Shown: one piece after another, positions 16,062-31,036 of the stretch | Position numbering within the stretch: the stretch's first letter is position 1 | Layout of the letters: each line of letters begins with the position of its first letter | From: Collibacillus ludicampi | GTDB taxonomy: Bacteria > Bacillota > Bacilli > Tumebacillales > BOQE01 | Assembly: GCF_023705585.1 (NCBI RefSeq) | Contig: NZ_BOQE01000001.1 | Coordinates: 337,642 to 369,641, forward strand | Direction: 5' to 3' | DNA: 32,000 nucleotides | Program-made: the position numbers and the translations under genes | Notes under the pieces: generated by a model | What the model was told of the DNA's origin: nothing | Databases searched by the model: none | What the model saw: the letters and a program-made list of their open reading frames with translations, nothing else

Positions 16062-16080
16062 ATTCACTTCCTCCTTCAAA

Positions 16081-16192
16081 GGCCTCCGGAGTTAGCTGAC
16101 GGGTTCGGGTGAAGGATCCCCCGCCTGTTGGTTACCAATAGGTTCACCCCAAAAGTTGGTTCCTCCGTACTTGATCAACAAGATTCGGCCAT
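16081..16192 (-). promoter_or_regulatory. c-di-AMP riboswitch (ydaO-yuaA class)
   Basis: The minus strand reads GGCCGAATC...ACGGAGGAACC...GGGGTGAACC...CACCCGAACCCGTCAGCTAACTCCGGAGGCC. This matches the remembered conserved blocks of the ydaO motif, and it abuts the RBS of the LysM/3D gene. Confidence 0.75.
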
Positions 16193-16275
16193 AAAATGTA
16201 CGCAGAATAGTATACCGATTACCGATCAAAACTTCATTAGTAATCGAATGGTGCAGGAGGAAGAAAGTACATATC

Positions 16276-17853: not shown

Positions 17854-18318
17854 TTATGAAAGAGAGGATTTTACATTTTCATCCGTATTTTTCCACAGTT
17901 CCCCGCCGCGAAATTCCCGCAAGAAATCGGACAAAAGTTTTTTTTCCTTCTCCGTCAAGGCATCTACCTGTACTTTGCCTTTCATCGCTGCATCCATCTT
18001 GTTCACTTGATCAGGAAGACTCTTGTAGCCGGTTCGCGCTTCCTTATCAATCACGAGTACGGAACCGCAAATCCCCGAGTAGCCGAAGCCCCCTTCCGTA
18101 CGACGCAAAGTGACCCAAATAACAGGGATACGGATGCCCCCCGGTACTTCATCGGGACTTTTAGCTGAAAATGAGATGCCTCGTTCCACGCGGCTCTTCC
18201 CGTGAATCGCGCCATTATCAATGAACACCTCTTCTCCGTCAATGATAACCGCCGATAAGGTAGCAAATTCGTCGGGGGTATCATGTCGGGAACGACCTGT
18301 GATTCCCAATTGTTCCAT
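17854..18318 (-). CDS. Hypothetical protein, possibly YwhD family
   Basis: A 154-aa ORF with GGAAGGGAG 8 nt before the ATG. The segment EARTGYKSLPDQVNKMD resembles my recollection of YwhD-family proteins, which I could not verify. Confidence 0.55.
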   Translation of the reverse strand: MEQLGITGRSRHDTPDEFATLSAVIIDGEEVFIDNGAIHGKSRVERGISFSAKSPDEVPGGIRIPVIWVTLRRTEGGFGYSGICGSVLVIDKEARTGYKSLPDQVNKMDAAMKGKVQVDALTEKEKKLLSDFLREFRGGELWKNTDENVKSSLS

Positions 18319-18338
18319 ATGTTCAACTCCCTTCCAAT

Positions 18339-18517
18339 CTTGAAAAATATGTAGTTTGGCGGCGTATGCTTTGCGTTCGTGCTCCGTGGAGGTCGTCTCG
18401 CTGGGAATATGTTTAGTCGTTGCGAGACGACCTCCAAAGTCGCTGTCTCACGCAAAGCATTACGCCCACCCAAAGTCACTTTTCATCCTCTGATGGTGCC
18501 GCTTGCGACATGGGGTA
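18339..18517. repeat. Palindromic repeat, copy D (the cleanest single unit), filling the dapF to downstream-gene spacer
   Basis: CTTGAAAAAT..GGCGGCGTATGCTTTGCG-TTCGTGCTCCGT-GGAGGTCGTCTCGC-loop-GCGAGACGACCTCC-AAAGTCGCTGTCTCA-CGCAAAGCATTACGCCCACCC..ACTTTTCATCCTCTGATGGTGCCGCTTGCGACATGG. It starts right after the dapF stop and ends 20 nt before the next start codon. Confidence 0.9.
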
Positions 18518-19363
18518 CTACTTATAAAATATTCCGTCACAAACGAATGTGGCAGGACCCGTCATATACACTTTTCCGTTTTCTTCGCTCCATTCGATCT
18601 CAAGATCGCCACCGAGTAAATGAACGAGAACTTTGCGGTTCAATTTCCCATTGAGGATGCCTGCGACGACCGCCGCGCAAGCACCTGTCCCGCAAGCTTG
18701 TGTGACGCCGGAACCTCTTTCCCATACGCGGAAGATGATTTCATCGCGCGAGACCACTTGAATAAACTCCACATTGACCCGTTCGGGAAACAAGGGGTGA
18801 TGTTCCAATTTTGGCCCCAAGTTTGTTACGTCGATTGTTTCCACGTCATCAACAAAGATGACCGCATGGGGATTGCCCATGGACACACAGGTAATCCGAT
18901 ACGTATTTCCATCGACTTCAACCGGTTCCATGATCATCTCCGATTCCGGATCCCCTACAACGGGGATGTCTTTCTTACGTAAGCGGGGCTTTCCCATATC
19001 GACTGTGATCGATTCCACCCGATTCTCACCGTTTAGATGCAACCTCGCCTCAACGATTCCCCCCAGGGTCTCGATCGAGAATATTTTTTTATCGGTAAGC
19101 CCTCTCTCATACACAAATTTCGCCACACAGCGCAAGCCGTTTCCACAGTTCTTTCCTTCCGACCCATCCTGGTTAAAGATGCGCATTTTAAAATCGGCCT
19201 GTTCGGAGGGAGCGATTAAGATCATGCCATCAGAACCGATGCCCGTATTCACATCACTTACACGGATCGCTACATCCGCCAATTCCTCTTCCCGTAAAGT
19301 TTCTTCAAATAAATTGACATAAATATAATTGTTCCCCAACCCGTGCATTTTTGTAAATTTCAC
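18518..19363 (-). CDS. dapF: Diaminopimelate epimerase
   Basis: [15 protein letters not shown] and the two catalytic-Cys contexts ([14 protein letters not shown]). A GTG at 19363 behind GGTGGGGGGG is the likely start, with the ATG at 19384 as the alternative. Confidence 0.9.
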
Positions 19364-23253: not shown

Positions 23254-23469
23254 TTCATTGTATTTCTGCACAAGAAAATTTTTCATGTTCTGATTGCCGC
23301 TTGAGCATCATGGGGTAACCATTCGGTTGAATCGTGACTGTTGAACGGTCACCAGTTCAAAATATGTTGAATGCGAGAACTCAATGTTAGGTTTTAGACG
23401 TTAAATCGAGAGTTAGTTGTAAAATTTTTCGAGTTGCATCGCGCTTATACTATGGTACAGTAAGAAAAG

Positions 23470-23590
23470 AATAGCCGAATCTTCAAATGTGAAGAACGGG
23501 GGACTTTTTTTAGGGGTGAATCTTAAAACTTCGAGTTTTAAGTAGGGTGACTCCTTGACCCGAACCCGTCAACTAACCTCGTAGGCAATT
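23470..23590 (+). promoter_or_regulatory. c-di-AMP riboswitch (ydaO-yuaA class)
   Basis: AGCCGAATC...ACGGGGGAC...GGGGTGAATC...GACCCGAACCCGTCAACTAACCTCGTAGGC. It aligns block for block with the copy at 16081-16192 and sits directly upstream of the RBS of the second LysM/3D gene. Confidence 0.75.
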
Positions 23591-23613
23591 GATAAAGGAG
23601 AGTTGTACTAGGA

Positions 23614-27324: not shown

Positions 27325-27852
27325 TTAAGCCGTCGCTTCCTCGTAAATCGCTGCCCAGCCTTCCGTAGATTCGAAAATGCGGATACATTTAATTTTTCTG
27401 TCATCCATCAACGTAAACCAATGACGTGTACCCGCCGGGACAGAAATCAAATCGCCCGGTTCCAGTTCGACATCAAAGTAGGTGCCATCTTTGCCTTTGA
27501 TCGCGAAAATCCCGTGACCGTCAACGACAAAACGAACTTCATCTTCTGTGTGATGGTGTTCCGCTTTAAACTTGTCGAGCAACGCGTCCAGGTTGGGAGT
27601 GGCATCCGACAGAACAACGATATCCTGGGAACGATATCCCCGTTTCGCGGACAAAGCGGCGATCTCATCTTTGTAGAGATCGATAATCGATTGTTTCTGT
27701 TCGTCGGTTAACGCATATTCCTCTTTCAACTCTCCTTGTACGCGCGAGATGTCCCAAGTTTCGTAAACAATCCCCTGCTTCGCCAAGTAGGCAGCCACTT
27801 TTTCTTTTCCTTCGATGCGTTCATTCGTTTCATGAATACGAATCGCTGTCAT
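27325..27852 (-). CDS. mtnD: Acireductone dioxygenase (cupin, ARD)
   Basis: HHHTEDEVRFVVDGHG...PAGTRHWF are cupin metal motifs. It occupies the last position of the mtnWXBD operon. Confidence 0.9.
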   Translation of the reverse strand: MTAIRIHETNERIEGKEKVAAYLAKQGIVYETWDISRVQGELKEEYALTDEQKQSIIDLYKDEIAALSAKRGYRSQDIVVLSDATPNLDALLDKFKAEHHHTEDEVRFVVDGHGIFAIKGKDGTYFDVELEPGDLISVPAGTRHWFTLMDDRKIKCIRIFESTEGWAAIYEEATA

Positions 27853-27896
27853 TTGACAAGCCTCCCTATTCCAATTATTTGATATATACTTAATTT

Positions 27897-28586
27897 TTAC
27901 AACAAACCAATTGAAACGTTCGCAACCTTAGCAGGTTCGACCGCTTGCAAAGTCCTCACATACCCTAACCATAAGAAGTGATACTGGAACATAAACTCGA
28001 ACGCTTCTACATGACGCTTCGCGGAAAAAGAATCTTCTCCCCATGCATAAATGCCGTGCTTACGGATCAAAACACCCGGAACTTGCGGATGGATCCGCTT
28101 GCCGATCTCTTCCGCAAGACGTGGGATGTCCGCATAGTTCTCAATGATGGGAATCTCGATCGCAGCCCCTTCCTCCCAGATATTCAACCCTTTAATCAGT
28201 TCCATATCAGAGAGTACGACCGATTTTTCTTCCGCATAGATCTCGGAAATCAGGTTGTTGTAGACCGTGTGCACATGCAACACAGAACCTGCCCCTGTGA
28301 GTTGATAGATTTTTGCATGGATCAAGGTCTCAGCTGACGGTTTTAAACGGGTAGGCTCAATGGGCGAACAATCTTCTTTAACAAAAACGATATCTTCCAA
28401 TTGCAGATTTTCTTTATCACGGCCGCTTGCAGTAACGCCGAACACGAGCGGGTCATGGCAGAGACTGATAGAAAGATTGCCTGATGTGGCAGGAAGCCAG
28501 CCTTTTTGGCTGAAATTGTGCGCAATCTCATTCAATTCCTTAACCACCCGTATGCGATCTTCCTGATAAAAAAGATACTGGCTCAT
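27897..28586 (-). CDS. mtnB: Methylthioribulose-1-phosphate dehydratase (class II aldolase fold)
   Basis: GWLPATSGNLS...VLHVHT are aldolase-II motifs. The start forms an ATGA overlap with the mtnX stop. Confidence 0.9.
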   Translation of the reverse strand: MSQYLFYQEDRIRVVKELNEIAHNFSQKGWLPATSGNLSISLCHDPLVFGVTASGRDKENLQLEDIVFVKEDCSPIEPTRLKPSAETLIHAKIYQLTGAGSVLHVHTVYNNLISEIYAEEKSVVLSDMELIKGLNIWEEGAAIEIPIIENYADIPRLAEEIGKRIHPQVPGVLIRKHGIYAWGEDSFSAKRHVEAFEFMFQYHFLWLGYVRTLQAVEPAKVANVSIGLL

Positions 28587-29263
28587 CGCGCAACCTCCTT
28601 ACATTCTTCTTCCCATTGCTTCAACGTTTCGATCACATCAATAAATGTGTGAAAAGGAGTATGGGGTATAGCGGATTCTCGGCATTTTTCCAACAACAGC
28701 GATCGAGCAAACACATGATCAGCCATCTGTGCAGCCTTCCAGTCGGTGATGCTGTCACCGATGACGATCCGTTTCGCATCATTTGCCCCGTATCTGCGGA
28801 GGATGGCCGGTTTGCAAAGTCCACATCCCCCATCGCAATGTTCGTCACATCCATACGGCCACAGGATGCGAATCGTTTCCCCTGAAAAATCGGATCCATT
28901 GCAAAAGATTCTATTTTCATCCACATACGGCGACAGGATCGGCTTGACGAAAAAATCGATGCCTCCGGAAGTCACCAGAAATAGAATCCCTTCCTGCCGA
29001 CAATACTGTAACAATTCTTTGAATCCGGAACGAATCTTCGCTGTCTTCTGAGCATATTTGACGATTTGTTCTTTTTCCTCACTGGGAATCTGTGCAAACA
29101 TTTGTCCGACTCCGCTCTCCACCGAGATTCGCCCCGCCAGTACGTCCTCTTTCAGCATTTCCCACCCAGGACGCCCAAACTTTTCCATAATCGAGATGAT
29201 CATATCCCGTTCTGTTATCGTGCCGTCAAAATCGCAAAAGATCATCCATTTTTTTCTCATCAT
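28583..29263 (-). CDS. mtnX: 2-hydroxy-3-keto-5-methylthiopentenyl-1-phosphate phosphatase (HAD family)
   Basis: The [12 protein letters not shown] motif I lies near the N-terminus. The ATG at 29263 overlaps the mtnW TGA (ATGA) and is preceded by GGAAGAGG, so the ORF-track start at 29287 is unlikely. Confidence 0.9.
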
Positions 29264-30498
29264 GACACCTCTTCCGGACAACCCCACAGCGCGAGTGCCT
29301 CTTCCAGCTCACGGCTCTCCGCTGCTGCCTCTTTGAATGGAATTCCTTTACAAGTTGCGTCGATGGCTGCTACAAAAGCACGTCCTCCCGCTGTCGCCCC
29401 TTGTGGATGACCATGGATTCCGCCTCCCGCGTTGACCACATGATCCACTCCAAAATCACGATATAACAAGGGTACCATCCCAGGATGAATCCCTGCTGAC
29501 GGAACCGGAAATGAGGTCTTCAACCCCTCTCGTTTGCCGCGAAGATGTGCAGCGATCTGGAGCGTCTCTTCTCTTTCCATAGCAACCGAACCATAAGGAG
29601 ACGGATAGAGAACGAAATCAGCGCCCGCGAGCCTCATCAGTTTTCCCAATAGAATAGGTGCAGAGATCCCGTAGCGGTCTGAAGCATAGAAAGCACCAGC
29701 CAGTGCGGGATGAGCGACCAGTGGGACTGTGATCTCCGGATCGGCCGCCAAACGATGCAAAACATCATAACCAAACGGTAGCACGTTGATGAGTAGAGCA
29801 TTGGCACCCGCCCGCACCGCCCGCTTGGCTTTCGTAAAAATCTCAGTGACAGGACCTGTTAAATTAGCCGCATAGAGAACTTTTTTCCCTGTTTCTCGCT
29901 CTGCATTCTCAGCCGCGCGCAGACACGCCTCGATCCGTTTCTCAAACGGTGCGTATGTTTCATCAAAGAGAATCTCATCGTCTTTCACCAGATCGACGCC
30001 ACCGGCCGCTTGCAAGTAAAACTGTTCAGCCATTGTTTTCAAATCATAACCGATACAAGACTTGAAAATCGACATGAGCAAGGGGCGATTGTACACACCG
30101 AGCAACTTCCTTATACCATCAATCCCGAATTTGGGACCGGGAAACTGTTTCACAAAGGCTTCAGGAAACGTCACGTCTACGAGACGAATCATCCCGTCCA
30201 TCGACAATTTGCCGAAGATCGTTGTAAGCAATGCCGGAATGTCAGGTGTCAGGTTGATCATCGGATAAGCAATCGTCAGTCGGGCCTTGATCCGTCCGTT
30301 CTCGTCCTTTCCCAATTCTTCAACCGAGACAACATGTCCGAGGTGTTTTTTCATCTCCTCTTTTTTCGTTTCCGGCAGTTCCGTCCATGTACCGACTGTC
30401 AATCCATGAGCGATACCCAAAGCTTTCTTATGGAGGTCTCCTCCCTTGCTATGTACAAGGTAGGTTGCCGTCACGAATTGGCTTGTATCTGTATGCAT
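29260..30498 (-). CDS. mtnW: 2,3-diketo-5-methylthiopentyl-1-phosphate enolase (RuBisCO-like protein, YkrW type)
   Basis: RuBisCO large-subunit-like motifs are present ([29 protein letters not shown]). The operon context is mtnXBD. RBS GAGGTGAAGG precedes it. Confidence 0.9.
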
Positions 30499-30512
30499 GC
30501 CTTCACCTCAAA

Positions 30513-30797
30513 CTTGAAAAATTTCAGTTTGGCGGTCTTATGCTTTGCGTTCGCGCTCCGTGGAGGTCATTTCAGTGGGTATATGCTTTGCGTTCATGCT
30601 CCGAGAAGGTCGTTTCTCATGAAATTATAATTATATGTTGCGAAACGGCCTTCAAAGTCGCTATTACGCGCAATGCATATACCCCCATATCGTTCATAAG
30701 GTAGCGATGCGACCTCCAAAGTCGCTGTCTCTCGCAAAGCATTACGCCCTCCTAAAGACACAATCCAATCTTGTGGTGGAGCCGTTTGCGGCTTGAA
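30513..30797. repeat. Composite palindromic repeat, locus E: an outer unit (30513-30797) with a complete inner unit (30577-30684) inserted in its loop
   Basis: The outer arms are TATGCTTTGCGTTCGCGCTCCGTGGAGGTC and GACCTCCAAAGTCGCTGTCTCTCGCAAAGCATTA. Between them lies GGGTATATGCTTTGCGTTCATGCTCCGAGAAGGTCGTTTC-loop-GAAACGGCCTTCAAAGTCGCTATTACGCGCAATGCATATACCC. Confidence 0.9.
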
Positions 30798-30807
30798 TAT
30801 CAGTCAA

Positions 30808-30977
30808 GCAGTAAAGAAGCCTCTTCCTGAGAGGAAGAGGCCGACTCACGATATGAGCAGCTCTTATCTCTCAGAATCCTGTGATTCTGCAGGAGTTAGC
30901 ACCGTGCATAAGCAGTCGCTCATGTCGGTTGCCGGGCTTCATCGGGCCAGTCCCTCAGCCTTCTCTTGATAAGAGGC
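30808..30977 (-). promoter_or_regulatory. S-box (SAM-I) riboswitch with an intrinsic terminator
   Basis: The minus strand reads CTCTTATCAAGAGAAGGCTGAGGGACTGGCCCGATGAAGCCCGGCAACC...GGTGCTAACTCCTGCAGA...GAGAGATAAGAGC. This is followed by the GCCTCTTCC-TCTC-AGGAAGAGGC hairpin (30819-30841) and TTCTTTAC. Confidence 0.9.
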
Positions 30978-31007: not shown

Positions 31008-31036
31008 AATATACTACGAAAAGTCACCAGCGTCAA
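31008..31036 (-). promoter_or_regulatory. Candidate sigma-A promoter of the S-box/mtnW leader (TTGACG - 17 nt - TATATT)
   Basis: Read on the minus strand at 31036-31031 and 31013-31008, about 25 nt upstream of the first riboswitch helix. Confidence 0.6.

Follow-up and report, generated by a model that had tools for sequence, protein, structure and literature searches.

The mtnW leader of Collibacillus ludicampi carries, between the terminator of its SAM riboswitch and the ribosome-binding site (RBS), a 285-nt double hairpin that we read as a degraded, non-autonomous, MITE-like copy with IS110-type ends, inserted into the leader and tolerated there as a passenger; we put the probability of this reading at roughly 0.6. 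The copy belongs to what appears, from its sequence features, to be a large, orphaned family of IS110-ended MITEs, non-coding and multicopy, comprising about 200 arrays. Such a family shows how RNA-guided insertion sequences could seed non-coding repeats that outlive them. It also places one hairpin family inside the leaders of a quarter of the S-box and T-box genes of this genome, although repeats of this kind are usually treated as intergenic filler.

The window, i.e., the whole 32,000-nt stretch of DNA analyzed here, holds the leader on its minus strand, and positions without a prefix refer to it. A promoter-like site, TTGACG-17-TATATT (31008-31036), lies 5' of the S-box leader and is kept in both element-free relatives described below (alignment A1). 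It is followed by a SAM-I (S-box) aptamer at 30861-30975 (RF00162, 84.6 bits against a gathering score of 44.4), by an 11-pair terminator stem-loop at 30818-30842 and, on the same strand, by mtnW. The terminator U-tract CTTCTTTAC (30811-30819) is remodeled with respect to TTTTTTCGT, found in both relatives (alignment A1), and the U-rich tail ends at about 30811 and not at about 30808, as had been annotated initially. The operon mtnW-mtnX-mtnB plus an ARD/cupin gene (mtnD-like) occupies 27325-30498, minus strand, with all frames intact; mtnW, mtnX and mtnB are clear NCBIfam equivalogs (for mtnW, NF007095 at 613 bits), and the fourth gene is cupin-like, with orthologues in the two relatives that carry ARD/cupin Pfam families.

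About 310 nt separate the S-box terminator from the mtnW start (30498). The initial annotation had described this gap as filled by a nested repeat ending about 15 nt from the start codon, and both points were borne out: BLAST against the genome itself delimits a repeat of 285 nt on the minus strand (30797-30513), the minimum free energy (MFE) fold resolves it as a two-tier palindrome, and its 3' end ...TTTTTCAAG (30513), followed by TTTG, the Shine-Dalgarno sequence (SD) GAGGTG (30509-30504) and ATG (30498-30496), lies 14 nt from the ATG. L025, one of the two relatives, has this SD and start as well. At the left junction, ATATTCAAG (30792-30800) is the retained left half of the target, as judged from the empty L025 site GATTTTCAA... 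and from the left-flank logo. Next comes a degenerate head (30748-30791), homologous to an IS110-type left end (alignment A2), in which the first ~13 nt (ATAGCCCTCCATG) are gone, a small GCCGC/GCGGC-type hairpin is kept and the remainder is heavily substituted. The outer hairpin pairs 30747-30705 with 30574-30532 (31 bp, three helices), and the inner hairpin, or core palindrome (30577-30684), pairs 30684-30639 with 30619-30577 around an A/T-rich loop (34 bp, two helices). The tail, ...CCGCCAAACTGAAATTTTTCAAG plus TTTG, which we take as a diverged RTAG core, spans 30509-30535 and looks like the right end of an IS110-type element. For the 371-nt leader the predicted folding energy is -131 kcal/mol, versus -98 ± 5.5 in shuffled sequences (z = -5.9). 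No plausible gene lies within the 285-nt element, and neither the element nor its head gave an Rfam match, even at E-values up to 10.

Leaders of relatives were compared, and they include the site without the element. The metagenome contigs L025 and L026, whose MtnW proteins are 93% and 82% identical to that of C. ludicampi, respectively, share with it the gene order aminotransferase, S-box, mtnWXB and ARD; by comparison, the nearest named MtnW homologues, from Effusibacillus spp., are 71-73% identical. In both contigs the promoter, aptamer and terminator stem are nearly identical to those of C. ludicampi, the element is absent and the flanks align cleanly across the gap (alignment A1), so that the aminotransferase-mtnW intergenic region measures 275-288 nt, versus 554 nt here. 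The empty site in L025 reads ...CTTGACTGATTTTCAAATAAG followed directly by AGGTGAAAGCATG, whereas the occupied window reads ...CTTGACTGATATTCAAG, the element and then TTTGAGGTGAAGGCATG; compared with the empty site, the leader has gained a net 279 nt. In 16 of 17 more distant GTDB relatives, the distance from the aptamer end to the start codon is 49-125 nt, versus 362 nt here, a difference due to the insertion. The repeat is thus an insertion, as the initial annotation had proposed, and not an ancestral leader; the arrival of the mtnW copy after the lineage split from its closest sampled relative appears well supported by these alignments. A second empty site was found in the trpS T-box leader (empty in L131-L133) of the 95% relative from the same sample, which reads ...CTATTTTCAAAGTAG followed directly by GAGG. 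Presence/absence polymorphism with an intact empty site is therefore seen at two leaders, mtnW and trpS, and both targets are a near-consensus 12-mer directly 5' of the SD. Empty sites dated in this way in close relatives provide a natural before/after pair for a 285-nt double hairpin on a riboswitch-controlled mRNA.

The mtnW leader, used as a BLAST query on the whole genome, matches 166 loci, and the matches of six representative queries merge into 203 arrays that cover 60.9 kb, or 1.5% of the genome. A 22-mer from a hairpin arm has 208 matches here; 16 further genomes of the order lack it. Family members begin with a 5' head of ~45 nt (...TAG CCCTCC ATGCCGCAAGCGGCGCC ATCAGAGGATGAAAAG), continue with an optional small hairpin and then with one, two or three long hairpins, which are nested and belong to two related types, and end in a tail that closes with TTTTCAAGRTAG. 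No module is more frequent than the inner hairpin core; across its 34 full-length copies, standard pairs fill 98.6% of pair cells, and double changes occur at 6 of 35 pairs. Literature searches did not find a description of this family, the nearest published analogue being MITEPpu9/ISPpu9. In the window itself, a single-tier sister copy with intact head and tail (18327-18530, minus strand) fills the whole spacer between a stop codon and the RBS of gene 17854-18318, and the TAG stop of the upstream gene falls inside its left 12-mer (18518-18530, minus strand). At 23273-23313, about 150 nt upstream of a c-di-AMP riboswitch (23463-23602), a head-like sequence stands alone, with 66% identity to the head module; a second c-di-AMP riboswitch lies at 16066-16200 on the minus strand. 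Six near-identical coding copies (C1:553141, 1230192, 1861771, 2877436, 3538561 and 3955956), presumably of an IS66-family transposase, matched the tail query only through a chance 15-mer.

The ends of the family point to IS110. In other Bacilli, a 24-nt motif of the head is found again at the left end of a multicopy element. One genome of the same order, G006, has two copies, 99.8% identical, of a 1592-bp IS to whose left end the head can be aligned; the transposase of this IS has the domains PF01548 (DEDD_Tnp_IS110) and PF02371 (Transposase_20). Heads in C. ludicampi are 81-89% identical to that left end, and the tail TTTTCAAGATAG resembles, in a comparison made by eye, the right end of the G006 IS, ...ATTTTCAGGATAGAC. 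TAGAC stands at both ends of the G006 IS; the repeats here have RTAG at either junction. Apart from this core, 54 two-ended arrays show no duplicated target, flank matches being equal to the shuffled control in 51 of the 54. An exception is trpS, where a 16-nt repeat occurs: at C1:213823-213886 (L135), an extra 16-nt copy of the target, TCTATTATCAAGATAG, lies between the element and the SD. Similar second 12-mers are also found behind the tail at alaS and at a few further loci.

The genome does not encode a cognate IS110 transposase, the best homologue being 24% identical and some homologues broken. An autonomous copy in this genome was ruled out: neither head nor tail motifs lie near its IS110 loci, and no head-gene-tail unit was found. 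The family head had no match in plasmid records. Mobilization by an IS200/RAYT enzyme was likewise rejected, PF01797 (Y1) being absent from this 99.87%-complete genome. The lack of a cognate mover counts against the reading of the mtnW element as an IS110-ended passenger, as do the TTTG at the right junction and the truncated head, which depart from the clean junctions expected. It appears well supported that a pre-formed two-tier unit inserted into a TTTTCAAR-RTAG-like site, immediately 5' of the mtnW SD, and has since lost the first ~13 nt of its head; the copy is now probably immobile and fixed in place.

Position and orientation of the arrays are far from even. The initial annotation had seen the same proximal end, followed by the RBS, at 18318-18348; this is indeed present, and the pattern is far more general. 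With gene calls that are crude ORF calls from our own scripts (~3850 crude genes), the tail lies at most 40 nt from an SD-led start codon in 39 of 185 arrays, while only 7 have the head that near a divergent start (Fisher 4e-7). Where the flanking genes are co-directional and on the leading strand, sense arrays outnumber antisense ones 74:23. Where they converge or diverge, the direction of replication is followed by 46 of 65 arrays (46:19, P 0.001; origin near 1.46 Mb and terminus near 3.58 Mb of genome C1), and we know of no report of a replication-direction bias for IS110-type elements. The 12-mer on its own was little enriched near starts: unoccupied 12-mer-like sites (at most two mismatches) near starts numbered 20 and 17 of 196 in the two orientations, and 9 of 133 for a scrambled 12-mer, counts in which the best sites may all be missing as already occupied. 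Terminators as a general landing site were considered and discarded, a terminator-like site being found upstream of 23 of 185 arrays and 41 of 600 controls.

The genome has 6 S-box and 14 T-box leaders, and five of these 20 (mtnW, trpS, hisS, alaS and proB) hold an array of at least 195 nt between terminator and RBS, all in sense orientation. Only 0.24 would be expected from 46 RBS-adjacent arrays among ~3850 genes (P 3e-6), and the enrichment persists without the index case mtnW (P 6e-5). The four T-box leader arrays lie at C1:213852-214046 (trpS), C1:199529-199805 (hisS), C1:1835629-1835873 (alaS) and C1:599247-599716 (proB), and tail-only remnants occur in two more leaders (C1:2773806-2773874 and 652928-652955). 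trpS, hisS and alaS are single-copy genes; the element copies at mtnW, hisS and proB have decayed heads. For 40 of the 41 other RBS-adjacent arrays the upstream region was examined, and it contained no Rfam leader or other riboswitch class; these arrays precede ordinary biosynthetic and housekeeping genes, including mtnA, hisG, purC, glyA and asnB. At mtnA, a second methionine-salvage gene, a 550-nt array (C1:3627662-3628211) ends 6 nt from the start, with no Rfam leader within 420 nt upstream. Because the same arrangement stands behind four T-box leaders, the element either prefers the attenuator-to-RBS niche or is tolerated there unusually well.

What the insertion would mean for mtnW was approached through its sequence context. 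A scan found no sigma-70-like promoter or terminator-like site within 30513-30797, and promoter-like matches are depleted in the arrays as a whole (0.15 per kb versus 0.68 per kb genome-wide). Since the element lies 3' of the S-box terminator and lacks a promoter or canonical terminator of its own, the SAM-dependent decision would be made at the riboswitch before the element is transcribed. Every read-through mtnWXB(D) mRNA would then carry an extra 285-nt double hairpin just before the RBS, an expectation of the initial annotation that gains support from the 14-nt gap to the start codon and from the missing internal sigma-70-like promoter. A strong block of mtnW by the element is argued against, indirectly, by three considerations: (i) trpS, hisS and alaS are essential in bacteria generally, and since these single-copy genes carry the element in the same place, it must allow sense transcription and translation; (ii) constraint on MtnWXBD in this lineage gives no sign of relaxation, because the own-unique amino-acid changes number 23 against 24 unique to L025; (iii) the predicted change at the SD is small, the mean P(unpaired) being 0.35 with the element and 0.52 or 0.46 without it, a fall from ~0.5 to 0.35 that does not predict strong occlusion. 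Most likely, then, the net effect on mtnW would be small, with the element as a tolerated passenger and S-box control kept.

Alternatively, mtnW expression may be reduced by the element, which could act as a weak second terminator, be cut by RNase III or partly sequester the SD, and the S-box U-tract would have been weakened in compensation. Upstream of the insertion, 271 aligned leader columns contain six own-lineage substitutions, five of which fall in the 9-nt U-tract and change TTTTTTCGT to CTTCTTTAC (binomial P about 1e-10). The drop in SD accessibility goes in the same direction, the SD pairs in the MFE fold with CUCCACC of the head remnant, each tier forms a 31-34-bp duplex, and the base of the long hairpin runs into AUUUUUC, as a second terminator might. 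In this hairpin, however, the U-run begins ~10 nt past the G+C-rich stem, unlike in an intrinsic terminator, and the scan recovered no terminator-like site inside the element, although very long hairpins are beyond what it can score and a weak effect is possible. Single-copy aminoacyl-tRNA synthetase genes tolerate the element in this position with T-box U-tracts that look normal. The U-tract changes themselves are open to milder readings: one of them (T to C) gives the stem an additional G-C pair while 5 U in 8 remain, and the terminator may therefore still work; the whole cluster could be a single mutational event. Taken together, we regard lowered expression with compensation as unlikely.

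The U-tract cluster also bears on the preferred reading, that of a tolerated passenger, since a purely neutral insertion is hard to reconcile with it unless one multi-base mutational event produced all five changes. At trpS, the T-box U-tract is unchanged with respect to the relative. The mtnW cluster may represent either one multi-base event or an adjustment of termination strength, and it is a concrete hint that a regulatory leader adjusted to an insertion.

Mere tolerance is further challenged by the sense bias, the RBS adjacency (39 versus 7) and the occupancy of 5 of 20 attenuator leaders, all of which could reflect selection for function. The element may, for instance, have been retained as helpful, a stable hairpin 5' of the RBS either shielding the mRNA from 5'-to-3' decay started in the leader or insulating the folding of the RBS. 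RNase Y in B. subtilis offers a precedent for leader-initiated decay of riboswitch-controlled mRNAs. A shielding or insulating role would explain the enrichment behind attenuators (five leaders against 0.24 expected), and the abutment of tail rather than head on the RBS, the 74:23 sense excess between leading-strand genes and the well-kept pairing of the inner cores (98.6% of cells, double changes at 6 of 35 pairs) are in keeping with it. The mtnW S-box spacer of G006, which belongs to another genus (L010:2760-2990), holds, in the same place, an unrelated dispersed hairpin repeat, which has 51 matches in G006 and a weak match to the Rfam family Bacillaceae-1 (38.9 bits). Decay of riboswitch-controlled mRNAs that begins in the leader has been described (PMC7913692).

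Several points stand against such a role. At both empty sites a near-consensus 12-mer already adjoins the SD on its 5' side, so that target choice may by itself account for the position; none of the 40 further RBS-adjacent arrays looked at has a known leader upstream; the mtnW, hisS and proB copies are head-decayed, as expected for junk; and arm-to-arm conversion can keep palindromes paired without selection. Retention for such a benefit seems to us quite improbable. A broader form of the idea would have IS110-ended hairpins preferentially kept 5' of RBSs, above all behind S-box and T-box attenuators, as a portable 5'-UTR module with which the mtnW terminator co-evolved. Co-evolution with the insert would explain the remodeled U-tract, and a module of this kind would stabilize or insulate the coding mRNA after leader cleavage; we hold this, too, to be a rather doubtful proposition.

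The two-tier layout raises the separate question of whether the element arrived whole. The initial annotation had described a second complete palindrome in the loop of the first, and two nested tiers are indeed present; the implied separate insertion of the inner one did not stand. Ten other loci are collinear with the two-tier composite over 267-298 nt at 79-85% identity, and in the mtnW copy head and tail are found at the outermost ends only, the inner hairpin carrying neither. Because ten loci share the layout and the inner hairpin lacks ends of its own, the two-tier unit spread as a whole, and most likely the composite reached mtnW as one pre-formed unit. Nesting in place, with one palindrome first and a second copy later inserted into its loop, could draw on the paralogy of inner and outer arms and on the existence of family copies in one-, two- and three-tier forms, but it has to account for an inner hairpin devoid of head and tail, for an identical collinear layout at ten other loci and for hairpin loops unlike the TTTTCAAGRTAG target, and we consider it very improbable. 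Least credible of all is that the element brought an outward promoter from which mtnW is now transcribed independently of the S-box. IS110-family ends are known to carry promoter parts and many genes lie at most 40 nt from a tail, but the mtnW copy has no sigma-70-like match, the 65 kb of arrays hold only 10 such matches with no recurrent position, and hairpin cargo has taken the place of the autonomous IS's -10 region.

The arrangement as a whole can be set beside known systems. The B. subtilis-type mtnW (ykrW) operon is under S-box control, and the order promoter, SAM-I aptamer, terminator and mtnWXB(D) is the same here; the differences are the 362-nt spacer and the altered U-tract. Small palindromic repeats co-transcribed with their neighbors are familiar from Correia elements (Neisseria), ERIC/IRU (enterobacteria), BOX/RUP (pneumococcus) and bcr1 (Bacillus cereus group). 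Like these, the present family consists of dispersed hairpins in 5' UTRs and intercistronic spacers that would form part of mRNAs, with a modular build that recalls BOX, but the sequences are unrelated, the ends here are IS110-like and the arrays have no recurrent sigma-70-like promoter of the Correia type. To our knowledge, a preference for attenuator-to-RBS spacers has not been reported for any of these families. With REP/BIME/REPIN-RAYT systems the family has in common abundant intergenic imperfect palindromes in arrays, and its strand bias (46:19) recalls single-strand mechanisms; it differs from them in its IS110-like ends and in the absence of a Y1_Tnp/RAYT gene.

Closer parallels are found within IS110 itself. 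MITEPpu9 of Pseudomonas putida, present in 8 copies, carries an sRNA gene and coexists with ISPpu9, of the IS110 family (PMC12288879). It resembles the family described here in being non-autonomous, with IS110-type left and right ends, and presumably moved in trans (PMC12288879), whereas the C. ludicampi family comprises ~200 arrays, its cargo consists of nested hairpins, no cognate IS accompanies it and its arrays abut RBSs with a pronounced sense bias. Likeness to IS621-type bridge-RNA elements (PMC11208160, PMC11208158) lies in the head, which corresponds to an IS110 left end, in the RTAG core at both junctions, in the lack of general target duplication and in site selectivity; unlike those elements, the one described here has no transposase or bridge-RNA region, and the left half of its target resembles its own right end. 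In distant Firmicutes, namely Desulfotomaculaceae (L030, L031 and L032) and the metagenome contigs L033 and L034, the ~45-nt IS110-type head of the family is found together with a TTTTCAG(G/A)-type tail around quite different hairpin cargo; in L034 and L030 a start codon again follows the tail, ~30-35 nt downstream.
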